The notes beneath the pieces were generated by a model. The model worked only from the letters and a program-made list of their open reading frames with translations. It made no database searches and was not told where the DNA came from. This document shows, piece by piece, positions 23,056 through 39,688 of a stretch of 64,000 nt of DNA. Made by a program: the position numbers and the translations under genes. The stretch is from a virus, in the IMG/VR virus record IMGVR_UViG_3300037264_004862, positions 58,825 through 122,824 of that record, one strand, 5' to 3'. The stretch's first letter is position 1. Each line of letters begins with the position of its first letter.

Positions 23056-25186
23056 AATCAGCAAGTTAGCCTGGGCTAACTTCATGAGTTATGGCGACTA
23101 TGAAACGTTGCTTGAATTAGACTCTCTAGGACCAGCCTTAATAGTCGGCCAAAAGGAGGGCCGCAAGGAGGAATCAAATGGTGTGGGTAAGACCACCATT
23201 ACTACGGCAATAATTTGGTGTCTATTTGGTCGTACTCCTAGAAAAGCTGCCCCGGGTGATAAAGTTATAAACTTTTATACTAAGGGTCAATGCTATGTCA
23301 GAATTACTACTGCTGATGGTTGGGTCATCACTAGAACACGTGGTATTAATGGGCATGACGACTTGTTGGTTCATAAAGATGGTGAAGACATAACGCTGTC
23401 CACAAACAAGAATGCCCAAACGCTGTTGAAAAAACTCTTTAATCTAGATTACGACATATTCGTGGCTAGTATCTTCTTCGGTCAGCGTACTGAACCATTT
23501 TTAACGATGAGCGATCAGAAGCGCAAGGCCGCTCTTGAACGCCTTTTGGGCCTGAATCGTCTTAATGTCTGGGGCGATGTAGCTAGAGAATATAAGACAA
23601 CTGCTGAGCTAGAGCAACAGAAGATTAAAGCTTTGTCAGAAGTTCGTGTGATTGATATCACTAATACTAAAGAACAAATTCATCTTACGCATAAGCAGGC
23701 TGATGAATTCGAAATAAGTCGTGCTACTCTCGTGAAGACTCTAAGAACAGAAATATTAGAAGTGGCTACCAAACTCAAGCCGTTGATGATGGTTAATATT
23801 AGTGAACTGCAATCTAAATATAATCAGCAGGAGTCAAAGCGGAAGAATTTGAGCGACAAAAAGTTACAGCTAGACCACGCTATTGCAACCAATAAACAAT
23901 TGAGTACCGAAGTTATAAATCTTGAGAATATTGGAAACCAGCAGAAACTACGTCTGGCGTCTTTAAGTGATATTGATGTCGATCTCTTGAAGAAGCAACA
24001 TAAGCAAGCCGATATAGACGAGCAAACCAAAATAAGTCACCAAAATATAATTAATGGTTTAATATTGAGCCAGCACAAAATTGAACAGAAAATCCAGCAA
24101 CTCTTCAGCGATCTTAAAGATTGGAATGGTAAAACAGGAACTAGTTGTCCATCATGTAAACAGCTTATTTCCCCTGAACATGCAGAAGCTATATGCAAAC
24201 CTTATAGCATTCAAGCTAAGGAATTAGGTAAAGAGCTCTTACAAATTAAAGGGCGCACTAAGGAACACCAACAGCAGATGGATGCTATTGTGATTAGTCG
24301 TCCTATAATTTCAGTTGCTGCTGCAATGCGTGATACTGAAGAACGTCGTGCGATAAATGAGAATTTGCAGAATCTTAGAGCTCAGGTTGACGATATCTTC
24401 AAGCGTATGGTAAAATTACGAGATTTGAATATAAAACTTAGTGCAGATATTGAGCAGACAATCACTGATCTTTCTAAATCCGACGTTTCGACTCAACTCG
24501 AGACAGCTAAGCAACAAATGGCTTTGAGAGATCAGTTGAAAATTAAACTAGGCTTCTTGGATTCTAGATTGAAAGAAGAGAAAATCCGTGATAACTCTTA
24601 TAATGCTATGGTGAAGACGTTTGAAGTCGAATTAGATAGAGCAGAAATAGACCTTAGCCAACACTTAACCAAAATTGCGGAACTTGATGACAAGATTAAA
24701 TCGTACGATTATATTAGGCACAGTTACCATGACCGGAACAAGATCAAGATGTTCATTCTAACTGGTTTGATTCCGTATCTCAATGCACGTATTGAGTATT
24801 ATTTGAATGCATTTGAATGTGATCTAACGCTTAAATTTACTTCTACGCTCTCCGTAGAAACTTCTAGGTGGGATTATGACTTGCATTCTGGCGGTCAACA
24901 GAAACGTATTGATTTGGCAATAATGTTCGCTCTTTATGATCTATATATTTCAATGTATGGTCAGCAATGTAATGTGATGGTTCTCGATGAGGTCGATGGC
25001 GCTCTAGATCCATATGGTGTGCGGATGTTTGTGGATATCATTAACAACGACTTCGCCGGGGAGCGCCCTGATAAACCAAGTACTATATTAATCATAAGCC
25101 ACAAGAATGACATGGTAGATCAGTTTGCTACCCAAATATTAGTATCCCAGGATGCTGATGATTTCTCCCATATTCTTAAGGGATAG
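23039..25186 (+). CDS. Rad50/SbcC-like ATPase (T4 gp46-like)
   Basis: NFMSYG, NGVGKT Walker A, CPSC zinc hook, SGGQ signature, VLDEVD Walker B, ISH. Confidence 0.93.
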   Translation: MPNPLKISKLAWANFMSYGDYETLLELDSLGPALIVGQKEGRKEESNGVGKTTITTAIIWCLFGRTPRKAAPGDKVINFYTKGQCYVRITTADGWVITRTRGINGHDDLLVHKDGEDITLSTNKNAQTLLKKLFNLDYDIFVASIFFGQRTEPFLTMSDQKRKAALERLLGLNRLNVWGDVAREYKTTAELEQQKIKALSEVRVIDITNTKEQIHLTHKQADEFEISRATLVKTLRTEILEVATKLKPLMMVNISELQSKYNQQESKRKNLSDKKLQLDHAIATNKQLSTEVINLENIGNQQKLRLASLSDIDVDLLKKQHKQADIDEQTKISHQNIINGLILSQHKIEQKIQQLFSDLKDWNGKTGTSCPSCKQLISPEHAEAICKPYSIQAKELGKELLQIKGRTKEHQQQMDAIVISRPIISVAAAMRDTEERRAINENLQNLRAQVDDIFKRMVKLRDLNIKLSADIEQTITDLSKSDVSTQLETAKQQMALRDQLKIKLGFLDSRLKEEKIRDNSYNAMVKTFEVELDRAEIDLSQHLTKIAELDDKIKSYDYIRHSYHDRNKIKMFILTGLIPYLNARIEYYLNAFECDLTLKFTSTLSVETSRWDYDLHSGGQQKRIDLAIMFALYDLYISMYGQQCNVMVLDEVDGALDPYGVRMFVDIINNDFAGERPDKPSTILIISHKNDMVDQFATQILVSQDADDFSHILKG

Positions 25187-25188
25187 AT

Positions 25189-25196
25189 CAAATATA
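25189..25196 (+). promoter_or_regulatory. putative late promoter YAAAYATA (type example; variants at 8983, 13790, 27480, 33042, 34615, 36049, 36914, 38632, 44309, 46034, 57221)
   Basis: Recurs a few nt upstream of plus-strand gene starts; resembles T4 late TATAAATA; gp55-like sigma encoded at 27068. Confidence 0.55.
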
Positions 25197-25200
25197 CAAT

Positions 25201-25728
25201 ATGGCAGATAAATTTTTCGTCGATAAAATTAAGCGCGTTTTCAATGACGAATATTTGAGACGTAATCTCATCAAGTATTTTGTTGATAAAGGGTTTGATA
25301 ATTTCAATAAGAAGCTATACGCGCCGATTGTTCAGGATTTGCCATATTTAGTGCCAGAATTAGTAAATAAGATCGAAGTTGTTCCTTTCGTGAAGGAGTC
25401 CAACCCAGCTACTGGCCAAGTTAATATAGGTTGGAATTTCTTTGTCCTTGGTACTAATCGTATTGATCTTGGAGATTCTCTTCATAATAATATGAATGAG
25501 TTCCATCAAGCTTTGAATGGACCACCACCCAGCGGCGCTTATAATGCCCTGAAAACACCAAAAGAAATCATTGATTTTATTATGTTAGTATTAAAAAATA
25601 GCGCTTCAGGTATGGTTCAACCGCAACCACATGGAATGACGGTAACAATGCCCAACAGGCCAATCAATAGACCTCGTATGGGTCCAACTGCTTCAAGTAG
25701 CTATTACGAGAAGAGTCGCCCAGTCTAA
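25201..25728 (+). CDS. hypothetical protein
   Basis: ORF preceded by CAAATATA motif. Confidence 0.6.
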   Translation: MADKFFVDKIKRVFNDEYLRRNLIKYFVDKGFDNFNKKLYAPIVQDLPYLVPELVNKIEVVPFVKESNPATGQVNIGWNFFVLGTNRIDLGDSLHNNMNEFHQALNGPPPSGAYNALKTPKEIIDFIMLVLKNSASGMVQPQPHGMTVTMPNRPINRPRMGPTASSSYYEKSRPV

Positions 25729-25922
25729 AGACCGGCGTCGATATAATAGTTTTCACCACATGCACAGCGGACATTTTGTATTTGTCCTATGCTTGTGTTG
25801 GTAAAAGTAAAGGTAATACCACCACCGATCGCGCCGTGGTATTTCCCACGTATTGAGCATTTGTGAGTTTTGATCCAATCGTTGATTGGCTTTTCGTGCT
25901 CTTCGTCAATGGTGAATACCAT
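25725..25922 (-). CDS. small hypothetical Cys-containing protein
   Basis: Coupled (TAATG) to the upstream sigma-like gene; GAIGG, CACG. Confidence 0.55.
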   Translation of the reverse strand: MVFTIDEEHEKPINDWIKTHKCSIRGKYHGAIGGGITFTFTNTSIGQIQNVRCACGENYYIDAGL

Positions 25923-27019
25923 TATTTCACCATAATGTCCATTGCCAGACAGTGTAGCTTGATGTTTTCGCGCATTGCATCGATATCCTTAATATCCTTA
26001 TTAAGATAATTAGCAAGATTAGCTCTATGAAGCTTATCAGTCCCAAAACGCTCGATGTAGTCCTGAGGCGTGTCGACGATGAGATCAAATAATCTCTGAG
26101 CATCACCAGAGAGACGTCCACGTAGAAGATCTAGGTTCTCATTGCCACTAGTTGGAGGTTCTATACGGGATAGTGCCTTATGTTCGCAATGGTCGCGATG
26201 GCTGGCTTCAGTTTCGACGCTGGTACTACCGCTGTCCAAGCTAGTGTACTTGGCATAGACCTTTTCGACAATTTGATAACTGATCGTCTGTGGGACCTCA
26301 AGGATAGAAACCACATTTATAGAAGTCCACCCTAAGCTGATTTGAACGCCGTATGATTCGAACTCATGCTTGATTTCTTGGAGTTTTTGAATGGTCTTAA
26401 TAGGTAGAAGACCAGTCTCACAACGAATAACGTTATGCTCCATATCAATGGATTCTAGTTTGTGAGGATAATTCTTGATTGTGTTCAAAGCAGCAGCGAT
26501 CGCTTTGGTGGCGATGTCGGAAGCGTTGCCTTCTTCAGTCCGTGCTTCTTTAATAGAAGGTGGTTTGTTCTCTCTGAGAATTTGACGTAGGTAATTAAAC
26601 ATTACAGACTGAAAAAATTTCTTACGTTTAATTGGATCATTGGCAATTTGTGGTTTGGGGGACCATTTGATGACGAGATTGATATTACAATCTGGGCATT
26701 TCTCCGTTTTAGTCTTTGATGTAACAAAGTGCCTCTCGCACTTTGTGCATTCTCTAGATTCGTGGAATAGCACCATCAGAGCTGCCTTCCAAAAGGTGAT
26801 TTGGCAATCTTGTTTACCGACTTCAATATCCTTATATTCGTTACCGATAGTTCGTCCAAGGGCCATACAAAATTCCATTTTTTGGCCCTGAATGTTTGGG
26901 TCCTCCCAAGCTGTTTTCATTAGGGCATCTACTTCCTTCATCTCATCCTTGGTTAGGAGTTTGGCAGTTTCGTTCATCAATGAACCGCGTAGAAAAAGCC
27001 GCGCAAGTTGGTTGCTCAT
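25922..27019 (-). CDS. sigma-70-like factor with zinc-ribbon insertion
   Basis: Region-2-like QDCQITFWKA ... FFQSVMFNYLRQILR interrupted by CTKC...CPDC; C-terminal region-4-like HTH (LSGDAQRLF...LANYLNKDIKDI). Confidence 0.55.
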   Translation of the reverse strand: MSNQLARLFLRGSLMNETAKLLTKDEMKEVDALMKTAWEDPNIQGQKMEFCMALGRTIGNEYKDIEVGKQDCQITFWKAALMVLFHESRECTKCERHFVTSKTKTEKCPDCNINLVIKWSPKPQIANDPIKRKKFFQSVMFNYLRQILRENKPPSIKEARTEEGNASDIATKAIAAALNTIKNYPHKLESIDMEHNVIRCETGLLPIKTIQKLQEIKHEFESYGVQISLGWTSINVVSILEVPQTISYQIVEKVYAKYTSLDSGSTSVETEASHRDHCEHKALSRIEPPTSGNENLDLLRGRLSGDAQRLFDLIVDTPQDYIERFGTDKLHRANLANYLNKDIKDIDAMRENIKLHCLAMDIMVK

Positions 27020-27067
27020 ATATCCTCACTTTAAGTATTTTAGTTACACAAATTAATAGGAGCTACA

Positions 27068-27445
27068 ATGGTTAAGAAATCGTACGTCGACTCTAAAGCG
27101 CTTGAAAATCATTGGACATCTTGGCTGGACAATAAAGGCGATGAATCGTGGAAAGCTTTGCTTGATGGAATCTATAAAATTTGTTATGGGGTTGCTATCC
27201 ATTTTCATCCTAAAGATGACGATGAACATAATGAACTCGCACATGAGGCTTTTATACTTACTGTAGACAAAATCAAAGATGGAAGGCTGAAATTTACTCC
27301 TGGTAAGGCTCCAGTTTTTAATCTGTTGACTACTACGGTGTTCAGACATCTTTACTCCAAAATGAATAAAGATTCTCGTCGCAAAGTCGTACTTGCCAAT
27401 TTCAAACAAAAGCTTATTGATGATCATGCGTTCGAAACGGAATAA
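27068..27445 (+). CDS. T4 gp55-like late sigma factor
   Basis: YVDSKAL, IYKICYGVA, ELAHEAFI, KFTPGKAPVFNLLTTTVFR...KMNK resemble the gp55 pattern; AGGAG SD. Confidence 0.65.
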   Translation: MVKKSYVDSKALENHWTSWLDNKGDESWKALLDGIYKICYGVAIHFHPKDDDEHNELAHEAFILTVDKIKDGRLKFTPGKAPVFNLLTTTVFRHLYSKMNKDSRRKVVLANFKQKLIDDHAFETE

Positions 27446-27491
27446 ATCACAGGATAGACCAGCACACAATAATAGCGTATAAATATACTGT

Positions 27492-28478
27492 GTGGATTAC
27501 CGGGCTCAGAGAAAACCGCCTGTTCAGCGTGTTCATGTAAAAGTACATGCTGTATCTCGGCCACCGATTCCACGAAATGTACAGTCTGTGACTGTGAAAC
27601 CTATTATAATGCTTCCTAAAAGTGCTAGGAAGCATTCAGTACAATCTGTATTTAATCCACCATTGGCGCCCACTTTAATACAAAAGCCTATTGAGGTGCA
27701 AGTACGTCCTCTAATAGCGCCTGTCAGAGAGTTTAAGAAGAAACTTGGTAAGGGGTATATAAACCCTTTGGCCGTTCAACACAATAATTTATTGAAGGAA
27801 TATAAAGATTCAATTGACAGGTTGCGATGTGTTGGTAATACTAAGATTCTGGCTATAGTGGCGTGTGGTCCATCTATATTAGAAGCCGATCTTGAAAAAT
27901 TGAAGGACCAACCTAATATTGACCTTATGTGTATTAACAAGCCTGATAAGAGGCTTTGGCCTACACCATATTGGATGTTCTGTGATCAAAGTCAATTTGC
28001 CCGCAATAAAGACATATGGGAGCATTATGATGGGCAAGTCATTAATGCATCATCTGTTAGAGCTCGACATAGACGCCAAATCCTAATTAAGAGTATATCG
28101 GGACGAGGCTTTTCACGTGATTTAGGTAAAGGATTTTATATTGGCCGCTCATCTACTTATGCCGCTATGCAAGTGGCGCTTTGGATGAATTATAGCAGAA
28201 TATATATATTTGGGGTCGATATGTGTGCGGTGGATGGTAAATTGCATTTTTATGGCAAAAATCCTGATGTCGATGATACAAATCGTATACAGCGTTTTGA
28301 CAGGGAAGCTGAAAGCTATCTCTATGCAGCCACTAATGTATTAAAACCTGAAGATAGAGAACGTTTTGTATTTTGTAGTAGTTTTAATAAATATAATTTT
28401 GTTGATTATTATCGACGCTTGCACCAAAAGAAGGCAGTTGATATAATATTAGAGGAAGCATTAAAGCTTAGGAGATAA
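27492..28478 (+). CDS. second Maf/DUF115-like glycosyltransferase with basic Pro-rich N-terminus
   Basis: IVACGPS, MCIN, FCD, GRSSTYAAMQVALWMNYSRIYIFGVD. Confidence 0.7.
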   Translation: MDYRAQRKPPVQRVHVKVHAVSRPPIPRNVQSVTVKPIIMLPKSARKHSVQSVFNPPLAPTLIQKPIEVQVRPLIAPVREFKKKLGKGYINPLAVQHNNLLKEYKDSIDRLRCVGNTKILAIVACGPSILEADLEKLKDQPNIDLMCINKPDKRLWPTPYWMFCDQSQFARNKDIWEHYDGQVINASSVRARHRRQILIKSISGRGFSRDLGKGFYIGRSSTYAAMQVALWMNYSRIYIFGVDMCAVDGKLHFYGKNPDVDDTNRIQRFDREAESYLYAATNVLKPEDRERFVFCSSFNKYNFVDYYRRLHQKKAVDIILEEALKLRR

Positions 28479-28479
28479 T

Positions 28480-28677
28480 ATGACAGATGACAAAGGACAC
28501 AAAGGAGCCAAGCAGGATTTTGGCGCTTCTAAAAAGACCGATAAAGGTGCTCACGGTGGGGGCAACCAATATCATGATATAAAATTGAAATATCCAAAAT
28601 TTGCCTTAGGTGAGGGATTCAAGCATAAGGATAAACCTGGGAAGAGTACTGGTGGTAATAGCATCCCAGAGAAATAA
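28480..28677 (+). CDS. small Lys/Gly-rich protein
   Basis: AGGAG SD; low-complexity basic sequence. Confidence 0.55.
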   Translation: MTDDKGHKGAKQDFGASKKTDKGAHGGGNQYHDIKLKYPKFALGEGFKHKDKPGKSTGGNSIPEK

Positions 28678-28698
28678 CCATAGCCTGTAAATAAGGCT

Positions 28699-29277
28699 AT
28701 GAAGAATCTATTGCGAGGCACTAGGGTCTACTTAGCTGGTGTTGTCGAGGCAGATCCTATTGGCGCTGTGACTTGGCGTCAAGAAATTACAGACAGGCTT
28801 TCCAAATACGATATACAAATTTATAATCCTCTTGTGAAGCCAGATTGGCTTCCAGAGTATTCTAGAGTAGATGTGCAAGTCTATAAGGACGTTCTGGCTG
28901 GTAAACAGCCTAGAATTGAGATGGATTTGCCAACGGTGTTTGAAGCTAATACTGCTATCCGTAGGATTTGTTTAAGAATGATATCGTCCTGTGATTGGGT
29001 CATTTGCCATATGCCTAAGGTCTTCACTGCGGGTACATGGGAAGAGTTGTATCTTGCAGCACAATTAGAGAAGCCAGTTTTATTTCATCTACCGGATGGG
29101 ATACCTCCAACTTGGGCTCTTCCAATCTTTGCTAATGCCGATACGATGAAAGAGACATATTTTAATAATTGGGATGTTTTGTTCGATCACATCGATAAAC
29201 TAGATAATGGAACTGCTCCAATGGATCCATATAAGTGGTTGTCGGTTTGTTATACTCCAGAATGTTTGGTGAAATAA
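28699..29277 (+). CDS. nucleoside 2-deoxyribosyltransferase / dNMP N-glycosidase family protein
   Basis: VYLAG, WRQ, YNP, CDWVI, AGTWEELYLA..LEKPV. Confidence 0.75.
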   Translation: MKNLLRGTRVYLAGVVEADPIGAVTWRQEITDRLSKYDIQIYNPLVKPDWLPEYSRVDVQVYKDVLAGKQPRIEMDLPTVFEANTAIRRICLRMISSCDWVICHMPKVFTAGTWEELYLAAQLEKPVLFHLPDGIPPTWALPIFANADTMKETYFNNWDVLFDHIDKLDNGTAPMDPYKWLSVCYTPECLVK

Positions 29278-30032
29278 TGTTTACAACTAGATTCGAAATT
29301 AATGTAATTCATCCTAAATCTAATCCAATTGAGGCGGTTGATTTTGCTTCCCGGTATGCTTGTCCTGCGATTGTTACAGTCCCAGAGATGGTTGCTCCTT
29401 TTATAGCTGCTAGGTCTATACGTCGGGCTTTGTTTAAAGTAATCGTTGCAGTTGATCTCCCAAACGGGAATAATTTTGCTATGCAAAAATTGCGCGACTT
29501 GGGACCTGATGCTTTAGCTGCTGATGGATTTGATATTGTAGCGTCCCCTAAAAGGAATGCCAAAGAAGCTTTAAACGAAGTTAAATTACTCACTGACTTC
29601 ATTCGTACCATGAATCCTTTGGCTGATATCAGATGGTCGCTCGGAGCTCTCGATAGGTCTGAAGTTGATTATATAGAACATATTAAGAGTGTGTTAAAAG
29701 TGCCTTGTAATTTTCTGCGTACCGATCATCGTACTTATTATCCTAATATTAAAGTCGATGACCATAAACGGATTGTTGAATCAATCAGAAAATTTATTGG
29801 AGTTCCAATTAAAGTTTCTGGTAATGTCGATATTACTACTTATCGTGCTTTTGAGCATGATAAATCAATTAGGTTCGATGTGACGCTTGATCAGGCTCAG
29901 TCTTTAATAAAAGCGCCACACGAAAACAATAATGAGCAAAAAACGCAAGAAAAATTATCAGAGCAAAAAACGTCCCAACAATCGATTGACGGCGAAAAAG
30001 TCGTCGGCACATTGGGTCAAGATGTCGAGTGA
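29277..30032 (+). CDS. DeoC (deoxyribose-phosphate aldolase)-like TIM barrel, Schiff-base Lys replaced
   Basis: AIVTVP, VAVDLPNG, ADGFDIV, NFLRT (cf. DFIKT), PIKVSG, IRF align with DeoC. Confidence 0.65.
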   Translation: MFTTRFEINVIHPKSNPIEAVDFASRYACPAIVTVPEMVAPFIAARSIRRALFKVIVAVDLPNGNNFAMQKLRDLGPDALAADGFDIVASPKRNAKEALNEVKLLTDFIRTMNPLADIRWSLGALDRSEVDYIEHIKSVLKVPCNFLRTDHRTYYPNIKVDDHKRIVESIRKFIGVPIKVSGNVDITTYRAFEHDKSIRFDVTLDQAQSLIKAPHENNNEQKTQEKLSEQKTSQQSIDGEKVVGTLGQDVE

Positions 30033-30396
30033 TTCTATAACTGATGGGTTTGCTTGTCCTTTTTGCCAAGCAAAAAATTCATTTAAGCCTTCATCGTGGG
30101 ATAAAGTGGGTTATGTTCCTATCATATGTGTGAAATGTTCTAATTTGTTTTGGGCTAGAATACCTAAAGTCGATGCTGAATTAACTGTAGTGAATAGGGT
30201 TCCTGTATTTAAAGTCCAAATTCCTGAATTAGAATTAGATACTTGGGTTATTATCGTAAATAAACAACATGTTAAACATTTGGAGCCGGGACGGATTACT
30301 AAATGTGATCATAAGCATTATCGTGTAGAATTTAACGACGGTGTTCAGATTTGGATGCCTCAGCATTGGGTGGAAAGGTTACCATTTGATCCATAA
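30022..30396 (+). CDS. zinc-ribbon plus SH3/KOW-like protein
   Basis: CPFC...CVKC then WVIIV...GRI....YRVEFNDG..IWMP.HWV. Confidence 0.55.
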   Translation: MSSDSITDGFACPFCQAKNSFKPSSWDKVGYVPIICVKCSNLFWARIPKVDAELTVVNRVPVFKVQIPELELDTWVIIVNKQHVKHLEPGRITKCDHKHYRVEFNDGVQIWMPQHWVERLPFDP

Positions 30397-30440
30397 ATAC
30401 ACTGGGTCGATATGTGGATCGGTATTGCCATGGAAATGAA

Positions 30441-31172
30441 ATGATTATAGCAAGCATAGACATTGAGGCGACAGGATTAGAAGAAACCAGTGAAATAGTT
30501 GAGCTTGGGTTAGTGGTTATGGAAACCACTAACCGCATGATTATGGCCATGCATTCTGATTTGTATAAGACTGAAGGGTGGTCTGATGAAGCCGAAGCAA
30601 TTCACCGTATTGATCGAACATCAGCTGATCAAGGTTTAATTACGTCTGACCCTTGGGAGCTAATTGCTCATTATAACCCTGTTGCTATGGTCGCGCATAA
30701 TGCTGAATATGATAAGCGATTAGCTATTCGTAGGTGGCCTAAATTTGGGCAAATTCCATGGATTTGTACACATAGAGATTTGCCCCATGAACGATTTATT
30801 AATAAAGTAAGTTCTAATCGACTCCAACACTTAGCTGTCGATTATGGATTCGATGCTGGTAGAAGGCATCGAGCATTATTCGATGCTTTGCTATGTTGTG
30901 AAATAGCTGCTATGCATGACCTTGAAAGCATATTGAAGACTGTTAATGAACCACGTTTCTCTATAATGGCATGGTTCGAAGGAAGACCTGATTTCAATGA
31001 TAAGGATTTTCAACTTCAGAAGGAGTATCTGAAGAAAGCAGGATTTAAGTGGGATGGAGACAATTGGATTAAGTCTAATGTTGTTGAATCTGTCACACAG
31101 AAGTATATTGCTCTAGCAACAGTGAAACCGCATTGGAAAACGAGAGTCGTTTCAGTCGATAAACAGAACTAA
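30441..31172 (+). CDS. DEDDh 3'-5' exonuclease (DnaQ/epsilon-like)
   Basis: IDIEATG, VAHNAEYD, HRALFDA. Confidence 0.88.
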   Translation: MIIASIDIEATGLEETSEIVELGLVVMETTNRMIMAMHSDLYKTEGWSDEAEAIHRIDRTSADQGLITSDPWELIAHYNPVAMVAHNAEYDKRLAIRRWPKFGQIPWICTHRDLPHERFINKVSSNRLQHLAVDYGFDAGRRHRALFDALLCCEIAAMHDLESILKTVNEPRFSIMAWFEGRPDFNDKDFQLQKEYLKKAGFKWDGDNWIKSNVVESVTQKYIALATVKPHWKTRVVSVDKQN

Positions 31173-31242
31173 ATGAATTAGAATTTGATATTATTAATCA
31201 TAGAATTGATAAATAATTTTGGTTCGGTACCAAGGAGGAATT

Positions 31243-32364
31243 ATGCAAACGGGTAAATTTAATTGTGTCGTTGATTCTGCTTGGGGCAGCTCTGCGAAGG
31301 GCGCGGCTTCAACTCGCCTTGTTGATATTTATAATGTTGGACATATATCGGCAAATAATTATCCAAATGCTGGCCATACGGCAATTGTGAATGGTGAAAA
31401 GTTTATTGCCAAAGTGCTACCAACAGCTTCAATCTTATCTAAAATTAAAAGCCATAAATTGGGTGTATGGATTGGCCCAAACTCTGGGTTTGACCTAAAA
31501 CAATTTAACTTAGAGCTCCAACAAACCATGTATGGCGCTAAAGATATTAATATCCATGAGCGCGCAACGATTGTAGAAGATCGCCATGTTATGATGGAAA
31601 GACCAGGGGGACTTCAATCAACTGAATACATATCATCAACGATGTCTGGATCCGGTGCTGCTTATACTGAGAAGGCTATGAGACGTCCAGATGTGAAACT
31701 AGCACGTGATGTTTTTAATACACTTAAGCCTTTTGAATTTATCAATAGAGTTCGTGAGAAATTAAATAGTGGTGAGACTTTTTGTCATGAGGTTTCACAA
31801 GGGTTTGCATTATCAGTTAATCATGGCACCCATTATCCTTATTGCACGTTTAGAGACTGTACACCCCAACAGGCAGTAGCAGATTTTGGTATAACACCAC
31901 AGTTAGTTGGTGATATATATCTCAATGTGAGGTCATTCCCAATACGAGTAGGCAATAATTATCGTGACGGTGTCCAGACTGGGTATTCTGGTGATTGTAT
32001 GTCCGATCAAATTGAAATGACATGGGAACAAATTGGCAAAGAAGCTGAAATGCCTGGCCACGAAGTTGCTGTCTTGGCTGAAAAAGAGCGCACTACTGTG
32101 ACTAAGAAGATTAGACGCACGTTTACTATGTCTTGGCAATTATTGCTAGAGTCAGCGATATTTTGTGGTGCCACCAAACAGATATTGAATTTCCCACAAT
32201 ATTTACATTGGTCGGCATATAAAGTACGTGGTGGACGTGAACAGCGTTCTAAACTACACCATAAAGTTAGGGCTTTTATCGATAAAATGGAAGAGGTTGC
32301 TCAAATTCCTGTTGTTATGGTTGGTACTGGCCCCAACCATGAAGACTATATATTTCTTGATTGA
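31243..32364 (+). CDS. purZ: PurZ-type N6-succino-2-amino-dAMP synthetase (PurA paralogue)
   Basis: WGSSAKG (Ser for PurA Asp), PNAGHT, STMSGS, QGFALS..YPYCT.RDCTP, PIRVG, TTVTKKIRR, LNF.QY (not TKLD); start after AAGGAGG. Confidence 0.82.
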   Translation: MQTGKFNCVVDSAWGSSAKGAASTRLVDIYNVGHISANNYPNAGHTAIVNGEKFIAKVLPTASILSKIKSHKLGVWIGPNSGFDLKQFNLELQQTMYGAKDINIHERATIVEDRHVMMERPGGLQSTEYISSTMSGSGAAYTEKAMRRPDVKLARDVFNTLKPFEFINRVREKLNSGETFCHEVSQGFALSVNHGTHYPYCTFRDCTPQQAVADFGITPQLVGDIYLNVRSFPIRVGNNYRDGVQTGYSGDCMSDQIEMTWEQIGKEAEMPGHEVAVLAEKERTTVTKKIRRTFTMSWQLLLESAIFCGATKQILNFPQYLHWSAYKVRGGREQRSKLHHKVRAFIDKMEEVAQIPVVMVGTGPNHEDYIFLD

Positions 32365-32368
32365 TTTT

Positions 32369-32773
32369 ATGAAGATGACAGTAGGTACTGGAGTTTATGC
32401 TGATTTCCCAACTATTAATGGAAACATTTATACTAAAGGCCTTATACAAAAGTTCATTAAGAATGACCAGCTTCAGCAATTATTGGCAGATGGCAAAATT
32501 GTAGGCGGAATTATGGATCCGACTTCTTGTAAACCAGTAGGTGACGTCATTACACATCGTGTTCTGAGTGTTGCTCTATACAATGATGAGATTGTAGTTG
32601 AGATTGACGTAATTAATCCAGAACCACTCAAACGCTTGAAATATCCTCAGGCCGCTATAGTTCTATCTAGCCCACAAGCGAGGCGTAATGGCCAAACATA
32701 TACAGAGGAAAGCGATTTCCATCAAGTGAAAGCAGTGCATCTCCGTGAAAGCCCTGTTTTTAAGGGGTCATAA
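32369..32773 (+). CDS. degenerate T4 gp21-like prohead protease paralogue
   Basis: ADFPTINGNIYTK, KIVGGIMDP, ITHRV echo gp21 motifs; catalytic His and the SSRG context are absent. Confidence 0.45.
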   Translation: MKMTVGTGVYADFPTINGNIYTKGLIQKFIKNDQLQQLLADGKIVGGIMDPTSCKPVGDVITHRVLSVALYNDEIVVEIDVINPEPLKRLKYPQAAIVLSSPQARRNGQTYTEESDFHQVKAVHLRESPVFKGS

Positions 32774-32979
32774 TGAATATTAATGAGGCTGTGATTAGAA
32801 TACGAAAGGCTGGTACGTCTAATGTCCGTGTTCTTCCTATGGACGATCAGTCTTTTACGGGGCTGCATAGAATCGAAATTCGGGACCAAGGTGCTTGGGT
32901 TATGGTTGTTGAAGGCCTTGAGAAAAATATGGCTGAAAACTTAGTACAGCAAGCTATCAAAAAGGTTATCTTAGGATAG
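32773..32979 (+). CDS. small hypothetical protein
   Basis: TAATG coupling. Confidence 0.55.
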   Translation: MNINEAVIRIRKAGTSNVRVLPMDDQSFTGLHRIEIRDQGAWVMVVEGLEKNMAENLVQQAIKKVILG

Positions 32980-33126
32980 TATGCCACGTCAAATGTTATC
33001 ATAGTTAACATATTCACATAGTTTAATAATATTACTCCAAGCAAATCTACAATGAGGGTAGAAAAAACTCATGGTGGGTTTCCCTCAGGCAATTTTCACA
33101 ACAGTGCCGCGAGGAGGTGTTTAACA

Positions 33127-33540
33127 ATGGCCAGTCAACCAGCGAATCCTACGATCTTGGTGCAGTACACCGTTCGCTCGTATCGCGATGGAGTGAGACA
33201 CGATGCAGTGCTTGCATTGCTAGGTGGTGTCCTCGGTGGTGGTATGCGAGATCTGAAGATGTCCGTGCCTGGAGACGAGGTACTCATGGATGAGACTCGT
33301 GAAGCTCTAGGTGCAGGAGAATCCGCTATCCTGAATACGTCCCTTACAGTGGGTCGTACGACAGGTCTCCCAGTGGTTCGTCACTTTAAGACCGTGACGA
33401 CTGCGAAGGATGCAGTGGATAATGCAACGTTTGGCACAAATCTCGGAGTGCCGAAGCGTATTGGTAGAGACGTGTTCTTCTATAAGAATGACGCTAATCT
33501 CACCGCTGATCTTCATGCTCAGCTACGTGGCGTCCACTAA
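33127..33540 (+). CDS. hypothetical, probably abundant late/virion protein
   Basis: Strong GAGGAGG SD, upstream CAAATCTA motif, GC-richer codons, downstream hairpin. Confidence 0.65.
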   Translation: MASQPANPTILVQYTVRSYRDGVRHDAVLALLGGVLGGGMRDLKMSVPGDEVLMDETREALGAGESAILNTSLTVGRTTGLPVVRHFKTVTTAKDAVDNATFGTNLGVPKRIGRDVFFYKNDANLTADLHAQLRGVH

Positions 33541-33561
33541 ATGACGTCGGAATAGGAACTA

Positions 33562-33597
33562 AAGACCCCCGGTAGTCGAAAGGTTACCGGGGGTCTT
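33562..33597 (+). terminator. strong stem-loop (terminator or 3' stabiliser)
   Basis: AAGACCCCCGGTAGTC-GAAA-GGTTACCGGGGGTCTT, a 16-bp stem with GNRA loop; weak U-tract. Confidence 0.75.
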
Positions 33598-33672
33598 ATC
33601 ATATCTGTAATCTAATCTTTTAACTTATGGCATTTATGTAATTGGTTTTTATATTGGATATACGTACTTAAA

Positions 33673-34608
33673 ATGGGACTAATTGGAGGAACGATGTCCG
33701 AAACACCAGAAATCATTTCACGCATTGTAGTACCTGAATTAGAAGCGATTCTTGGCCAATCTTTTCCAATTTTGGATAATGGTTTTATTAGAGTTATAGA
33801 CTATATGGGATCTGATGAATCAATAGTTCAAGCAGCTCGAGTTTCATACGGTAAAGGCACAAAGAAAGTCCATGAGGACGAAGGGCTTATTCGATATTTA
33901 ATACGACACCACCATTCAACACCGATAGAGATGTGTGAAATTAAATTTCACATTAGAATACCGATGGACCATTGGCGACAGATGATCAGACATCGAACAG
34001 CTTCTGTTAATGAATATTCAACAAGATACAGTGAAGCAATTGATGATACTCAAAAAACATTGCCTGGCGAGTGGCGTATTCAAGCTATTGGTAATCGTCA
34101 AGGGAGTAACGGTCGGCTTGATAAATTTGTAGGTACTAAGTTATCAAATAGAGAATCTCGAATCCACAAACTTATTCGCAAAGAATATGAGCACCGTCTT
34201 GAGCTAGGTGTTGCTCGCGAGCAGGCTCGCAAAGATTTGCCTCTATCAACTTACACTGAAGCTTACTGGAAAATAGATCTTCATAATCTTTTGCATTTCT
34301 TGGCGCTGAGAATGGATTCTCATGCCCAGCTTGAAATCAGAAGTTATGCAAACGTCATGGGAGAAATAATTAGTAAATGGGTCCCCTATACTTGGCAAGC
34401 ATTCCTAGATTATCGATATAATGCTATGAATTTATCTTCTAGAGATAAGGCTGTAATCAAAGCACTAAATCAAAGTGATTTTAACTATGCTGCCAAGGAG
34501 CTAGCGGAAAATTATGGGTGGCTCAAAGCAGGTAAACCGGCTAAAAACCGCGAACGTGAGGAATTTGAATCCAAGATCTTAGATCTTGGAATGTCTGTAC
34601 CTTGGTAA
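33673..34608 (+). CDS. thyX: flavin-dependent thymidylate synthase
   Basis: AARVSY, HSTPIE, RHRTASVNEYSTRY, EQAR..LP, LRMDSHAQLEIR. Confidence 0.96.
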   Translation: MGLIGGTMSETPEIISRIVVPELEAILGQSFPILDNGFIRVIDYMGSDESIVQAARVSYGKGTKKVHEDEGLIRYLIRHHHSTPIEMCEIKFHIRIPMDHWRQMIRHRTASVNEYSTRYSEAIDDTQKTLPGEWRIQAIGNRQGSNGRLDKFVGTKLSNRESRIHKLIRKEYEHRLELGVAREQARKDLPLSTYTEAYWKIDLHNLLHFLALRMDSHAQLEIRSYANVMGEIISKWVPYTWQAFLDYRYNAMNLSSRDKAVIKALNQSDFNYAAKELAENYGWLKAGKPAKNREREEFESKILDLGMSVPW

Positions 34609-34626
34609 TGGTGGCAAATATATGGT

Positions 34627-35199
34627 ATGTTATACGCAAGTTCTACACGCAAACCAAATCAGATGGGGCCAGTCGCAGACAAACAGATACCTTTTATTGT
34701 GTATGCCAGCTATCCATCATCTGTTGTATCAACTGTCGGCTTTAGGCGTAGATTTGAAGTTTATCGCGACCTTGAAAAAGGTTCAATTATAGTAGAAGAT
34801 GCGTTGTTAGACGCTGGTTTCAATATTGCTACCCCAATTGCTTTTACGCTTCAGGTGGCCCAACAGCCAGCTAGATTCACTATTGTTGGCTTTGCTAGTG
34901 AAGGCGATTTGCTTGGTACGGCCGCCGGAGACCCAGTCGTCGATGAAGGTCTTCAACCTCAAACTTGGTTAATCCACAGTGGTACCATCGATGGTGAAAA
35001 GACTGAAGTTAAGCAACCGGTTCAAGGCAATCAGTCTTGGGGTGATGATCCTACCTCTACAAATCGTAATTATGCTGCGACTTTGAAGTCTGCTCTTGAA
35101 GCATCTGCTCCGGGTCTTAATATCTTCTATATGGAAATCAATGGCGTTAAGTATGGACAGATCCCAAATCGCCATGGATTCCAGAGCTTTACTTCATAA
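34627..35199 (+). CDS. hypothetical (probably virion) protein
   Basis: CAAATATA motif 4 nt before ATG. Confidence 0.55.
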   Translation: MLYASSTRKPNQMGPVADKQIPFIVYASYPSSVVSTVGFRRRFEVYRDLEKGSIIVEDALLDAGFNIATPIAFTLQVAQQPARFTIVGFASEGDLLGTAAGDPVVDEGLQPQTWLIHSGTIDGEKTEVKQPVQGNQSWGDDPTSTNRNYAATLKSALEASAPGLNIFYMEINGVKYGQIPNRHGFQSFTS

Positions 35200-35235
35200 G
35201 TTGGCCTAGAGGGCTCTAAGATTGGCATCCTATTA

Positions 35236-36027
35236 ATGCATAAGTATGGTGTAGTCATAGGGACGTGTGGCTCTGCACCAATAGTCGATCTTAATATCAA
35301 TAATATCAAACATTTATTGGGTAATGTTCCTATATTAATAAATGACGATGCTAGTGGCACAGAGTTTTCTACAATTGCACGAAAACAGAAGTGTTCACTG
35401 CATGTTAATTCTAAACACTATGGCCATGTGATTGGTGATCTGACTGCTTTTGCTAATGGTCTAGAATGGGCAATCGATAATAAAATAAAGATCTTAATTA
35501 AGGTCTCACGTAAGTTGCTTTTTAGGTGCGACATTCGAAAACATATAGAGAAAGTGGCTAAAGTTAATCCCAAATTTGAATGCATCTCGGCTAATTATTA
35601 TAATTTCGGATATATAACTTCATTGTTTGTTATGCATACTGAACGATTTTCCCATAAGCATCTGGGCGCTATAAAGCAATCTATTAAAACTGAGACATAT
35701 CCAATTGAGTATGAATCACATAAAAGAAGGTTAATAGTTGATGGGTTGTACACAAGACATACACAGAAAATGAATCAAGAGCTATATTTTAGACATTGTC
35801 TTAAAGTGAATCCAATATTATTAAACTGGTGGCAGCATAGGTTGTTTGTTTGGGGTGGTTTAAGGCATCTTAGTTTACGTAATGAAACATTTACAAATTT
35901 GCCATACACATTTGAAAATTTAACAATGAAAGGCCAGTTTATGATACATCATAAGTCATTGGAAATATATAAGGCTTTAAGTGTTAAGTATGGGTTATCG
36001 TATTCAAAAAATGAGTTATCACTTTAG
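35236..36027 (+). CDS. glycosyltransferase-like protein
   Basis: ILINDDASG, H.GH..GD..AF..GL pattern resembling GT2 N-terminus. Confidence 0.45.
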   Translation: MHKYGVVIGTCGSAPIVDLNINNIKHLLGNVPILINDDASGTEFSTIARKQKCSLHVNSKHYGHVIGDLTAFANGLEWAIDNKIKILIKVSRKLLFRCDIRKHIEKVAKVNPKFECISANYYNFGYITSLFVMHTERFSHKHLGAIKQSIKTETYPIEYESHKRRLIVDGLYTRHTQKMNQELYFRHCLKVNPILLNWWQHRLFVWGGLRHLSLRNETFTNLPYTFENLTMKGQFMIHHKSLEIYKALSVKYGLSYSKNELSL

Positions 36028-36060
36028 AGTGGTAAGTATAACCTAATACAAACATAATGT

Positions 36061-36852
36061 ATGGCCATTTTAGGTCCGGCTCAACTTCCTGTTATATTGA
36101 AAGTGGATTCAAATCCACTTAAGTTTCATGCAATAAGTCAGCTTGGTCACCCAGTAGTCAATGTTGAACTAATGGAACCTCAAATGGAACAGGTACTTCG
36201 TTCTACAGGTGACTGGATAGCTCAATACTTTCCGCTTGAAGAAAAATATGCTTTTTTTATGACTCAACCGCTTCAAGCCGAATATCCAATTCCACCAGAT
36301 GCTTATTGGATTAGAAAAGTGAGTTGGGATCCAGCTATTACGCGTATCGATAATATATTCGGTGCGGAAAGCTTTTTGTTTAACATTGGAAACATTTCAG
36401 GCATCCAAAACATGCTTGTTGATTACCATTTGTTGCAATCATATAGAAAATTTAGTCAGCGGATCTTGAGTAACGAAGGCCAATGGGAATTTAAAGTTGA
36501 GTCGGGCACAATTCGTCTGTTCCCAGTGCCAAAGGGTTCTTTCCCAGTTGTGGTTGAATATCTACCATCAGTTAATGAGTTCAAATCTGCACAAGCTCGA
36601 GAGGTAACATATCGTGCATTTTTGGCTCAAATGAAAATTGCATTAGGCCATGCGCGTAGAAAATTTGCCAATATTCCTGGACCAGATGGTAGTGCCATCA
36701 ATTTCGATGGTGATGCACTGGTCAATGAAGGTACTGAAGCATATATAAAAGCCCAAGAAGATGCAATATTACTCGGAGAACCTCTTGGAATCCACGTTTG
36801 GAATTGGTTATTACCACTTATTATACCATTTCTTGGTTCATCGATTCTATAA
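36061..36852 (+). CDS. neck/adaptor protein (T4 gp13-like)
   Basis: QLGHPVVNVEL...Q, LGHARRKF..IPGP...INFDG..LV.EG. Confidence 0.75.
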   Translation: MAILGPAQLPVILKVDSNPLKFHAISQLGHPVVNVELMEPQMEQVLRSTGDWIAQYFPLEEKYAFFMTQPLQAEYPIPPDAYWIRKVSWDPAITRIDNIFGAESFLFNIGNISGIQNMLVDYHLLQSYRKFSQRILSNEGQWEFKVESGTIRLFPVPKGSFPVVVEYLPSVNEFKSAQAREVTYRAFLAQMKIALGHARRKFANIPGPDGSAINFDGDALVNEGTEAYIKAQEDAILLGEPLGIHVWNWLLPLIIPFLGSSIL

Positions 36853-36929
36853 AAGTCATTATTGGTGGTAAGAATGCTGTAAGGCTTGAAGACATCTCGC
36901 ATTTGTTATAACTCAAATATATTACGTCA

Positions 36930-37289
36930 ATGATAACTATTGCTAATAAATTGGCAGTAAGAGCCGGTAATATCATATCCATACCTGGATGTGAACCACT
37001 TAGTGGATTTAGCTCCAATACTCTTGCAGCCAATATGAGCTGCAAGTCATCGGTTATTACGCTTGGGGCAGCCCTTGAGGCAATTCCAGGCTCTACAGTT
37101 GAAATGAGTTTTAATCCTAAGATGTTTTATTTCGTACTGCCTGAAGGTCCTCCTACAGTATTCGGTTGCAATACTTGTGATAGTGGTATAGATTGGTATC
37201 AAATTCTTCGTGACGCCTCAATTCCATTACAACCCCAAGAACCAAATGTTCCGGGTCCATGTGATGCATTCCCGATTCCGAGGTGTTAA
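36930..37289 (+). CDS. hypothetical protein
   Basis: ORF in neck module. Confidence 0.5.
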   Translation: MITIANKLAVRAGNIISIPGCEPLSGFSSNTLAANMSCKSSVITLGAALEAIPGSTVEMSFNPKMFYFVLPEGPPTVFGCNTCDSGIDWYQILRDASIPLQPQEPNVPGPCDAFPIPRC

Positions 37290-38608
37290 TGGACCAGATT
37301 GAAAAATTCCGTTTTGCATTACGTCAGCATCTTACTGAAGCTGCACGCTCTCAGTCAGTTATTCTTATGGCTGTTTTCCCGGGTGGTCGGAATGCTGAAT
37401 TTGAATCATATTTGAAAGTCGTAGGGCTTGATAGAAGCGTAGGGCGTGAACAAGATGGGCTTGGCGTTAAAGACGATGAAAAACGTAAAGCTATGCAAGC
37501 ACGCCCAGACGTAGGTGAATTTAGTGCCCAATCTGATCCAGACGCTGGAGCTTGGAAAGTTGTCGGACTCCCAGAGAAAGGCGAGTTTGGTAGAGATAAG
37601 CCGTCTCCATGGGAACTTTTTATGGATTGGTTATGGAAGTCTCTTAGAGAAAAAGGTTTAAATCCTTCACCTTATTTAGGTTTCGGAGATGCTAAGAAGA
37701 AAGATACTAAGTTAAGCCCACAACAGAAGCGCCAACGCAAATATGGTGTTGCTGTCAAGGTCCCATCTGAAACTGATCCAGCGGTAGTTTCAAAATATGC
37801 TTTTGCATGGCCATCTAAACAATACGCTGGTAGTGGCAAGATTCCTGGTGCGGGTTTTGATGTTCGTAAGGACATCACAATCGCCATTAGTTCAATGGGC
37901 ACTGATATTGATGCAACTTCTAAGAAATTTAACGAAATTTTGAAGATGATACCTCTCCCTCAAGGCTTTAAGATTGATTTCGATGCCAATAACTATCGAT
38001 GGAATATTCTTGTAGATATTGCGGTAGATGAACCTGAAGGCTGGGAAAACAGGTTGACTAACATCACTGCGTTTAAACGTGAGAATCGTGAAAAGTGGAT
38101 TGGTGCCATTCAAGAACTGGCGGCTGGTAGAACTAACTCAGCGCAATTGGCTCCTTTGGTTCGGGCTTTTTTAGTTGTAAAGCATGGCTTCCAACCGCCA
38201 TTTAATGTTGACACTCTATCACAAGAAGATTTTGATAAGGCGATTGATATTATAAATAATACTAAATTAGATGATGTTGTCAAGTTCGCACAAGAGACGT
38301 CCCGCGCCGCCCCTACTCTCTTTCAAAAGACAGGCAAAGATGTATTGCGCAACAAGTTGGTTGACCGTTGGAATCAAGTTGTCCAAGACTTAGCTAATCA
38401 AGGTGGAACTGAAGCGTACGTTGTCCAAGTAGCGCTGGCTGATTATATGACTCAAAAAGGTGGGTTCTCAGATCCGTTTGAGCCTGAAATGTTATCGCCT
38501 GGGGTACTCTCAAAGGCCATCATTCAAGCTGGGAAGCTGTCATTTGACGAGCTTCGTCCATTTACAGAATCAATAATTCGCATCATCAATCGCATCATCA
38601 AATCGTAA
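37289..38608 (+). CDS. hypothetical protein with tandem C-terminal helical domain
   Basis: Two ~75-aa repeats W...IQELA...GF..PF..D.LS....KAI; LTE/FTE motifs near both termini. Confidence 0.6.
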   Translation: MDQIEKFRFALRQHLTEAARSQSVILMAVFPGGRNAEFESYLKVVGLDRSVGREQDGLGVKDDEKRKAMQARPDVGEFSAQSDPDAGAWKVVGLPEKGEFGRDKPSPWELFMDWLWKSLREKGLNPSPYLGFGDAKKKDTKLSPQQKRQRKYGVAVKVPSETDPAVVSKYAFAWPSKQYAGSGKIPGAGFDVRKDITIAISSMGTDIDATSKKFNEILKMIPLPQGFKIDFDANNYRWNILVDIAVDEPEGWENRLTNITAFKRENREKWIGAIQELAAGRTNSAQLAPLVRAFLVVKHGFQPPFNVDTLSQEDFDKAIDIINNTKLDDVVKFAQETSRAAPTLFQKTGKDVLRNKLVDRWNQVVQDLANQGGTEAYVVQVALADYMTQKGGFSDPFEPEMLSPGVLSKAIIQAGKLSFDELRPFTESIIRIINRIIKS

Positions 38609-38645
38609 TGCTTCTCTGTGGTTTAATGATACAAATATACTGTAG

Positions 38646-39257: not shown

Positions 39258-39264
39258 AAGTAAG

Positions 39265-39675: not shown

Positions 39676-39688
39676 TTAGGAATTTAAA

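Follow-up and report, generated by a model that had tools for sequence, protein, structure and literature searches.

The DNA analysed here (the window) is the final 64 kb of the linear, 122,824-bp viral record IMGVR_UViG_3300037264_004862 from IMG/VR. CheckV puts the completeness of this record at ~34%, which implies a genome of roughly 360 kb. The window contains a gene for a predicted PurZ-type synthetase, an enzyme of the family that directs deoxyguanosine monophosphate (dGMP) towards the nucleotides of Z (2-aminoadenine), the base that takes the place of adenine in the DNA of certain phages. The gene and the motifs of its product are as follows.

31243-32364, + strand: PurZ-type synthetase (predicted N6-succino-2-amino-2'-deoxyadenylate synthase), 373 residues, of a "jumbo-phage" PurZ clade; assigned by family, structure, alignment and tree
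31282-31302, + strand: P-loop WGSSAKG, residues 14-20
+ strand: motif EVSQG, residues 183-187
+ strand: motif YPYCTFRDCTP, residues 198-208
+ strand: motif DQIEMTWEQ, residues 255-263
32092-32118, + strand: loop TTVTKKIRR, residues 284-292
32185-32202, + strand: nucleoside triphosphate (NTP) site LNFPQY, residues 315-320

The open reading frame (ORF) is intact, running from the ATG at 31243 to a TGA ending at 32364 with no internal stop, and a strong Shine-Dalgarno sequence, AAGGAGG, lies 5 nt 5' of the start codon. An alternative in-frame TTG is present at 31219, but 31243 was taken as the start because relatives begin MQTGKFN. A pseudogene or a mis-called ORF was ruled out by the intact frame, the ribosome binding site and the retention of all invariant residues.

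Family assignment and diagnostic residues

The match of the synthetase to its family is far above chance. The protein matches Pfam PF00709 (adenylosuccinate synthetase) with E 1.4e-22 and phrog_1211, "2-aminooxy adenylosuccinate synthetase", with E 7.9e-47. In a search of the PDB the best matches were chains 6fm1/6fko (E 5.7e-32), followed by the short PurA chains 2d7u/5k7x (E 4e-31) and by 7odx, labelled PurZ (E 2.7e-26). We take 6FM1/6FKO to be phiVC8 PurZ, the printed chain sequence of which matches the fetched phiVC8 ORF, and 2D7U/5K7X are presumably from Pyrococcus. Among the NCBIfam models, the PurZ model NF038379 is the top match at 183.6 bits, with the archaeal PurA model NF003295 second at 158.7 bits (cut-off 368). 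The PurA equivalog TIGR00184 scores 104.1 against a cut-off of 395.55, which leaves the protein outside PurA.

All six motifs had been quoted in an initial annotation made from the letters of the sequence, and each was found in the translation in its reported place. Their placing relative to PurA and PurZ likewise agrees with an alignment of the window protein with the proteins of phiVC8, S-2L, PMBT28, an Acinetobacter phage and Bacillus phage vB_BpsS-140, with Wayne PurZ0 and with E. coli PurA. In this alignment the P-loop reads WGDEGKG in E. coli PurA, FGSTGKG in phiVC8 PurZ and WGSSAKG in the window; the loop reads GATTGRRRR, TTVTKKVRR and TTVTKKIRR, respectively. At the NTP site E. coli PurA has LTKLDVL, phiVC8 LNFCNY, S-2L LNFAQY and the window LNFPQY, so that the NFxxY pattern of an ATP-type site stands in place of the TKLD GTP site. 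The AKG of the P-loop, which had been seen as allowing for altered specificity, is not special to this protein, since Wayne PurZ0 has FGSEAKG.

Residues were counted in 37 rows of the window's clade, in phiVC8 numbering, and in the PurA-type rows of the same alignment. The catalytic Asp13 of PurA is replaced by Ser (S14 in phiVC8 PurZ) in all 37 clade rows, whereas position 14 is Asp in each of the 19 PurA-type rows that have a letter there. Position 262 is Thr throughout the clade (37/37) and Gly in the PurA-type rows (20/20); position 295 is F in 37/37 clade rows and Lys in 18/20 PurA-type rows. Y298, mostly Val in the PurA-type rows, is kept in 36 of the 37, W252 in all and P233 in 34. The clade also has its own P-loop, GSSxKG, with Ser at position 15 in 32/37 rows, and Ser at position 34 in 34/37. 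According to the metaGPA preprint, F295 and Y298 stabilise the adenine ring of ATP, W252 is among the differentially conserved positions, and the substitution S14D in PurZ abolishes substrate selectivity.

Relatives and phylogeny

A large protein collection yielded 272 relatives of the synthetase at E<=1e-5. The best 120 of these are 44-100% identical, come from contigs no longer than 329,663 bp and carry the JGI label "adenylosuccinate synthase". A profile scan of IMG/VR gave 52 loci; those at least 39% identical are on contigs of up to 436,316 bp, and several of the latter have direct terminal repeats and 100% CheckV completeness. When the synthetase was compared by tblastn with 50,697 GenBank phage records, 191 records matched, all at <60% identity; those listed, 60 in number, belong to the known small PurZ phages (38-68 kb). 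Megablast of window positions 25000-45000 against the same 50,697 records gave no match, and the tblastn matches of the tail sheath and DnaE genes (see below) are also all below 60% identity.

The input to the trees included, in addition, 7 loci from metagenome-assembled genomes (MAGs) found by a scan of genome collections, canonical and short archaeal PurA from MAGs, and E. coli PurA. From 91 hmmsearch matches, 14 were dropped as identical or as the same ORF reached via two loci, giving a quick tree of 78 rows with the window protein. A more careful tree of 46 rows was built after removal of 32 more, namely close duplicates inside clades and PurA that are long or of unusual composition (L072, L068, L088 and L090 among them). 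It contains a Ser-bearing group of 39 rows (support 100/98), within which the window's clade (23 rows, 100/99) is sister (100/96) to classical PurZ (12 rows, including phiVC8, S-2L, PMBT28 and the Acinetobacter phage; 100/99). Bacillus phage vB_BpsS-140 joins after these two sister clades (100/99), and the Ser-bearing group excludes the two short archaeal PurA, which have Asp. The quick tree has the same topology. The internal branches between the window's clade and classical PurZ are long, at 0.64 and 0.84 changes per column.

Clustering with archaeal-type PurA, the finding that the initial annotation had set against its own proposal, is not what the tree shows, and an archaeal-type PurA identity is excluded by residues and tree alike. 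With PurA, PurZ and PurZ0 in a single phylogeny, the clade of the window protein is a branch apart from the PurZ of small Z phages. On these comparisons the synthetase is classed as a PurZ-group enzyme of a distinct branch that is widespread in large phages.

Inteins interrupt the PurZ-type gene in three relatives (L029 8597-11059, L055 8564-10987 and L038 10001-12256). Two of them start with Cys right after NAGH and end in HN before Thr, and the third splits YPF and CTSR; the inserts hold LAGLIDADG-like motifs. Inteins typically occupy conserved sites of important genes, and their presence in active-site motifs here fits, without proving, an important role for the enzyme.

PurZ-type genes of the clade (45-46% identical) were also seen on two MAG contigs, L062 and L063, with the titles Methylobacter sp. 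and Lentisphaeria bacterium; the respective MAGs hold canonical PurA elsewhere. These contigs may be mis-binned phage DNA, or may hint at hosts.

Tail, replication and nucleotide metabolism genes

The other genes that characterise the phage are listed below; for those outside the window, positions in the record (G000) are given.

40884-43727, + strand: contractile tail sheath, 947 residues (phrog_23, E 3.8e-80)
4256-5698, - strand: DnaE N-terminal piece, PHP domain and start of Pol III alpha (PF02811, E 1.3e-39; PF07733 positions 8-98, E 8e-27; phrog_405)
1024-3438, - strand: DnaE C-terminal piece, rest of Pol III alpha with finger and HHH domains (PF07733 positions 20-260, E 1.3e-33; PF17657; PF14579)
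30414-31172, + strand: DnaQ/RNase T-type 3'-5' exonuclease, 252 residues (PF00929, E 2.4e-8; phrog_192 "DNA polymerase exonuclease subunit", E 1e-23)
33673-34608, + strand: ThyX flavin-dependent thymidylate synthase (PF02511, E 5.3e-52; TIGR02170, 179.7 against a cut-off of 87.9)
61024-63999, + strand: ribonucleotide reductase large subunit, running off the window (phrog_84, E 1.9e-84)
G000 49109-50278 (L104 9110-10279), - strand, ~8.5 kb before the window: ORF with a family-A polymerase domain, 389 residues (match at residues 249-378, E 4.8e-17)
G000 33301-34704 (L105 11302-12705), + strand, 24-25.5 kb before the window: PurB, adenylosuccinate lyase (TIGR00928, 348.6 against a cut-off of 326.2; ADSL_C)
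G000 57386-58102 (L104 17387-18103), - strand, ending 722 nt before the window: family-4 uracil-DNA-glycosylase-like protein (PF03167, E 4e-29)

By tblastn the tail sheath gene matches those of Listeria phage LIS04 and Bacillus phage SP-15, and baseplate genes are present in the window. DnaE is encoded in two adjacent pieces, as it also is in four relatives (G002, G005, G020 and G023), and the C-terminal piece matches annotated DnaE-like Pol III alpha genes by tblastn. The description of the phage as contractile-tailed with a split DnaE is borne out by the sheath, the baseplate genes and the PHP and C-terminal pieces, but DnaE is not the sole polymerase-like gene. In the 389-residue ORF the family-A match covers the last ~130 residues and corresponds to the C-terminal part of the polymerase domain; ORFs of 381-400 residues with the same match occur in G002, G020 and G023. 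The other genes of its module encode DnaB, RecA, a gp32-like protein and a 5'-3' exonuclease. Two small ORFs of 129 and 142 residues lie between the DnaE pieces (3435-4249, - strand) and are 39-43% identical in the closest relative.

The DnaQ-type exonuclease gene is directly upstream of purZ; its scores in the NCBIfam 3'-5' exonuclease families are all below cut-off. With PurB in the record, both the synthetase and the lyase steps are phage-encoded. The uracil-DNA-glycosylase-like protein scores 115.7 bits with TIGR00758, below the cut-off of 125.3; the metaGPA preprint associates uracil-DNA glycosylase (PF03167) with contigs predicted to contain dZ.

An NDT-like/DERA-fold gene pair upstream of purZ

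Two ORFs about 2 kb upstream of purZ, both overlooked in the initial annotation, are likely pool-control genes.

28699-29277, + strand: protein of the NDT superfamily (nucleoside 2-deoxyribosyltransferase / nucleotide N-glycosidase fold), 192 residues (PF15891, E 4.6e-7; PF05014, E 2.5e-4)
29262-30032, + strand: DERA-fold TIM-barrel protein, 256 residues (predicted fold, AlphaFold2 pLDDT 85.3)

In the NDT-like protein, Y11 and E115/E116 are invariant in 10 homologues. Its AlphaFold2 model (pLDDT 74.5) matches YtoQ, NDTs, the CMP N-glycosidase MilB and DNPH1, with E from 4.5e-5 to 6e-3. The combination expected of DmtZ, an NDT-superfamily fold with catalytic Tyr and Glu, is present in this protein. 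The DERA-fold protein has no match in Pfam, PHROG or NCBIfam. A relationship to DERA by sequence was tried and rejected, as the PDB, searched with a profile, yielded nothing but a spurious fimbrial match and hhalign against E. coli DeoC gave a probability of 0.2%; the link to DERA is therefore one of fold. All PDB matches listed by Foldseek are DERA, the best being 6d33 (E 4.7e-11, TM-score 0.68 by query and 0.77 by target). DERA is a class I aldolase with a TIM barrel and a Schiff-base Lys. By strand order, the sixth strand of the phage protein carries the invariant R153 and the seventh the invariant K184.

In each of the 5 records with both genes the two are neighbours, although in G020 the pair is 187 kb from purZ; in 4 of 37 related loci they lie no further than 10 kb from purZ. 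In the complete 160.7-kb relative G004, which has an unsplit DnaE, an NDT-like ORF (175 residues) is followed after 2 nt by a dUTPase ORF (147 residues). These ORFs, at 6905-7348 and 7351-7878 on the - strand of L102 (G004 129500-149499), are in the same order as in the DmtZ-DutZ fusion of Wayne.

DERA acts on deoxyribose 5-phosphate, the compound that an N-glycosidase frees from dAMP. A coupled pair that destroys adenine nucleotides is thus an attractive reading of the two predicted folds, with the NDT-like protein as the candidate dA- or dAMP-removing enzyme. An NDT-family enzyme, DmtZ, is a component of the Z pathway in PurZ0 phages (PMC12884076), and the metaGPA preprint reports an NDT preferring dA in predicted dZ contigs.

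DatZ, MazZ and other pool-control genes

Neither datZ nor mazZ is recognisable in the window, as had been noted initially, and a wider search of the 122.8-kb record was also empty. A hidden DatZ was sought with a profile made from four known DatZ, run with --max on all ORFs of at least 50 residues in the record, and was rejected (best E 1.4). PF04447 was likewise unmatched in the record; control genomes are silent for it too, so this carries little weight. At 34% completeness, absence of DatZ and MazZ from this record alone is weak evidence.

Related genomes are more informative. The closest relative, G002, has a PurZ 68-70% identical to that of the window and is syntenic around DnaE. It carries a DatZ-like HD ORF (L056 6462-7064) flanked by the homologues of window ORFs 6635-7093 and 6040-6594; the two window ORFs themselves are 40 nt apart, with no DatZ-like ORF between them. 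By this comparison a dATPase-type gene is seen as gained or lost between close relatives. The complete 395,473-bp relative G020, with terminal repeats, has in common with the record the split DnaE, the small PolA-domain ORF, PurB and the NDT-like/DERA-fold pair. No phrog_7076 (DatZ) match was found in it at E<=0.01; it has a weak MazG-like match (E 0.008), two HD-domain ORFs and one dUTPase. Because this complete genome also has no such match, the lack of a DatZ-family gene in the lineage is probably real, though it is not universal in the clade.

Across the clade, 10 of 34 relatives have a DatZ-family match, among them 5 of the 10 with a completeness of 90% or more. In genomes of 360-436 kb the DatZ-like gene is ~10 kb from a ~950-residue family-A polymerase; one complete relative of 117.7 kb, from the same sub-clade as the window, has it ~0.9 kb from purZ. 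Where S-2L DatZ has W20 and I22, five of eight DatZ-like proteins carry Tyr and Ser/Thr, a Y20-S/T22 pair that the metaGPA preprint reports as prevalent in restriction-resistant (predicted dZ) contigs. In the DatZ-like proteins of the 257-436-kb relatives (L095-L100, from G033, G012, G015, G007, G008 and G016), these positions are Tyr (one Phe) and Ser/Thr. G033 has a MazG-domain ORF directly beside the DatZ-like gene.

Family-A polymerase is present in 16 of 35 clade records and in 9 of the 10 complete ones, DnaE in 7/34, Lyase_1 in 11/35, dUTPase in 10/35 and MazG in 2/35. Guanylate kinase was found in none of 35, and kinase steps are presumably supplied by the host. Judged by gene content, the synthetase clade spans several phage types with differing toolkits, a pattern like the convergence of toolkits described for small Z phages by Poubanne et al. 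(PMC12884076).

Proposed pathway for Z-DNA synthesis

From the observed family, residues, phylogeny, gene content and synteny we infer the substrate of the synthetase, the presence of Z in virion DNA and the roles of the helper genes. The PurZ-type enzyme would condense dGMP with aspartate, using ATP, to N6-succino-2-amino-2'-deoxyadenylate. The lyase step would fall to the phage PurB, whose gene is in the record but not in the window; release of fumarate would leave dZMP, which host kinases would convert to dZTP. The NDT-superfamily enzyme and the DERA-fold protein might destroy or divert deoxyadenosine nucleotides, and the proofreading exonuclease of the DnaQ type encoded next to purZ might help to keep adenine out. 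Replication would be carried out by the split DnaE, perhaps helped by the small protein with the family-A polymerase domain. We put at roughly 0.6 the probability that this phage has a functional PurZ-type enzyme and Z-DNA, with adenine kept out by means other than DatZ and MazZ. Taken by steps, the phage very probably makes dZMP and probably has Z in its DNA.

The initial annotation had proposed Z-DNA, or a related purine modification, made by a different replication and pool-control toolkit. This toolkit is right in outline but needs three amendments: the phage has its own PurB (TIGR00928, 348.6 bits) and a small family-A polymerase-domain gene, and the NDT-like/DERA-fold pair is a likely replacement for DatZ and MazZ.

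A more far-reaching version is that the giant contractile-tailed phages of this lineage are fully Z-substituted via DnaE, with the NDT/DERA module and the purZ-linked exonuclease excluding adenine. Their toolkit for Z-DNA would then be the third to have been assembled independently, and the first to use a polymerase other than family A or PrimPol; as a joint claim it is tentative, and we hold it to be doubtful rather than probable.

Several observations weigh against the proposed pathway. Both dGMP as the substrate and Z in the DNA are read from sequence, and the purZ-like gene and purB might just as well be a pair for synthesis of adenosine monophosphate (AMP). The 183.6 bits of the synthetase are below the curated cut-off of 300 for NF038379, with which phiVC8 PurZ scores 397.2 as a control, and NCBI's rule would therefore not name the protein PurZ. 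Since NF038379 seems to have been built on the classical PurZ branch, the low score weakens membership of the curated family and not the proposal that the enzyme works like PurZ. Position 12 is Trp in the window protein and in 29/37 clade rows, as in E. coli PurA, whereas classical PurZ has Phe or Tyr. Wayne, the sole PurZ0 in the trees, is basal in the Ser-bearing group on a long branch.

Further such points concern the helper genes and the genome. In the 122.8-kb, 34% complete record there is no match to DatZ (phrog_7076) or to MazZ, DUF550-DUF5664 (phrog_801), and HD_3 (PF13023), MazG (PF03819), HD (PF01966) and dUTPase are unmatched as well. The fold matches of the NDT-like protein are modest (TM-score 0.45-0.51), its BLASTP match to Wayne DmtZ-DutZ is marginal (E 0.037), and the DERA-fold protein seems, in its model, to have Arg on the strand where the Schiff-base Lys is expected. 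G+C content in 2-kb bins of the window is 34-46%; the predicted dZ contigs of the metaGPA preprint are higher in G+C.

Alternative explanations

dZMP might be made without full replacement of A. Substitution could be partial or confined to certain stages of replication, or dZMP could serve as a pool manoeuvre against host defences, with DnaE taking both A and Z. No dATP-removing enzyme was detected in the record and no DatZ-family match in the complete 395-kb relative, while full substitution is tied to dATP removal of the DatZ or DutZ type (PMC10201439; PMC12884076). No Z-preferring family-C polymerase is known; PMC10201439 names PolA as the sole polymerase family with a known shift to Z and raises the question whether other families did likewise. 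The same source, however, describes complete substitution in S-2L without a Z-specific polymerase. The conserved NDT-like/DERA-fold pair could, moreover, remove adenine, and conservation of the synthetase gene across giant phages, with inteins in three relatives, suggests a core and not an accessory function. Overall, incomplete replacement appears unlikely.

It is less probable still that the genes serve auxiliary purine metabolism, in which a PurA-like enzyme and PurB turn inosine monophosphate (IMP, or dIMP) into AMP (dAMP) for an AT-rich genome and no base is modified. Such a role would account for the phage encoding both steps of the IMP-to-AMP branch and would be in keeping with the AT-rich window, the score below the PurZ model cut-off, the Trp at position 12 shared with E. 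coli PurA and the failure to find DatZ or MazZ in the record. It is difficult to reconcile with the active site: the catalytic Asp is Ser in 37/37 rows, at the very position where S14D abolishes PurZ selectivity (metaGPA preprint), and the change from Gly to Thr at 262 is complete in the clade, as is the loss of the GTP site (K/V to F/Y). The clade is also nested in the Ser-bearing PurZ group, sister to enzymes of proven PurZ activity, and half of the complete relatives carry DatZ-family genes, which would be senseless in a pathway that supplies adenine.

Least probable is a shifted specificity, in which another 6-substituted purine nucleotide (a ribonucleotide or another 2-substituted purine) is made for a modification other than Z: the long internal branches to classical PurZ (0.64 and 0.84 changes per column), the clade-specific insertions, the clade's own P-loop with Ser at position 34 and the putative chemistry of the helper genes leave some room for it, but all positions linked in the literature examined to dGMP and ATP recognition are conserved except for F12W, and the TTVTKK(I/V)RR loop is near-identical to that of phiVC8.

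Comparison with known systems

Compared with classical PurZ (phiVC8, cyanophage S-2L 7ODX, Salmonella phage PMBT28 and Acinetobacter phages; NF038379), the window protein has the same fold and family and shares the Ser for Asp13, T262, the TTVTKK-RR loop and the NFxxY ATP site. It is, however, only 31-37% identical and ~30 residues longer; residues are inserted ahead of the TTVTKK loop, the C-terminal region is extended, and position 12 is Trp instead of Phe or Tyr. The carrier genomes differ as well, being contractile-tailed and 118-436 kb in the window's clade, as against 38-68 kb for the 60 listed small-phage records. The classical Z cluster consists of purZ-mazZ-datZ with DpoZ or PrimPol. 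In contrast, the lineage of the window lacks adjacent mazZ and datZ and a ~950-residue PolA, and has DnaE, PurB, NDT-like and DERA-fold genes.

The PurZ0/DutZ/DmtZ system of Arthrobacter phage Wayne and Gordonia phage Ghobes (PMC12884076) is, like the window, without DatZ or MazZ. There an NDT-family enzyme helps to remove adenine nucleotides, and in the window a gene of the NDT superfamily lies 2 kb from purZ. The window synthetase is on the PurZ side of the tree and has NFxxY, where Wayne has EDNLEAL. A dUTPase, part of the PurZ0 system, was not found in this record, whereas the 160.7-kb relative has adjacent NDT-like and dUTPase genes. The partner of the NDT-like gene in the window is a DERA-fold gene, of which the available text of PMC12884076 makes no mention.

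Short archaeal PurA (NF003295; 2D7U/5K7X) is similar in length and nearly equal in score (E 4e-31 against 5.7e-32; 158.7 against 183.6 bits), but its two representatives in the tree keep Asp 14 and Gly 262 and lie outside the Ser-bearing group. Compared with DERA/DeoC, the product of 29262-30032 has the TIM-barrel fold, with TM-scores of 0.68-0.80 in the listed Foldseek matches, whereas identity in these matches is 10-18% and an invariant Arg occupies what appears to be the strand of the Schiff-base Lys.

Occurrence and significance

Z-DNA has been described in small sipho- and podoviruses with a family-A DpoZ or PrimPol (PMC8599892). The accessible text of a 2026 review of jumbo phages covers uracil, deazaguanine and acyl-adenine modifications and does not name PurZ, aminoadenine or diaminopurine. 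The main texts of PMC12884076 and of the metaGPA preprint do not contain the terms "jumbo", "myovir", "DnaE" or "polymerase III". The literature examined does not link PurZ to giant or DnaE-encoding phages, although Tong et al. 2023 and the supplements of these papers may list such contigs. The Z-Calling paper mentions "over 2000 viruses" with PurZ homologues, with Tong et al. 2023 (Nat Microbiol) among its three sources.

If the PurZ branch described here is active, Z-DNA extends to phages of 118-436 kb from many metagenomes, and the question of whether DnaE copies Z-DNA becomes directly testable. Exclusion of adenine by the NDT-like/DERA-fold pair, if true, would provide new enzymes useful for Z-DNA production in cells. 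The branch also marks a gap in annotation: its members are labelled "adenylosuccinate synthase" by JGI, the only source that names them, and score below the NCBI PurZ cut-off.

Apart from the genes discussed above, a 328-residue ORF at 27492-28478 (+ strand) of the window has weak MptE-like, sialyltransferase and WaaZ-type matches. Further upstream, the record contains an NAD-dependent epimerase gene and two glycosyltransferase genes (G000 27303-28235 and 37051-39875). Together these genes suggest a potential for sugar chemistry.

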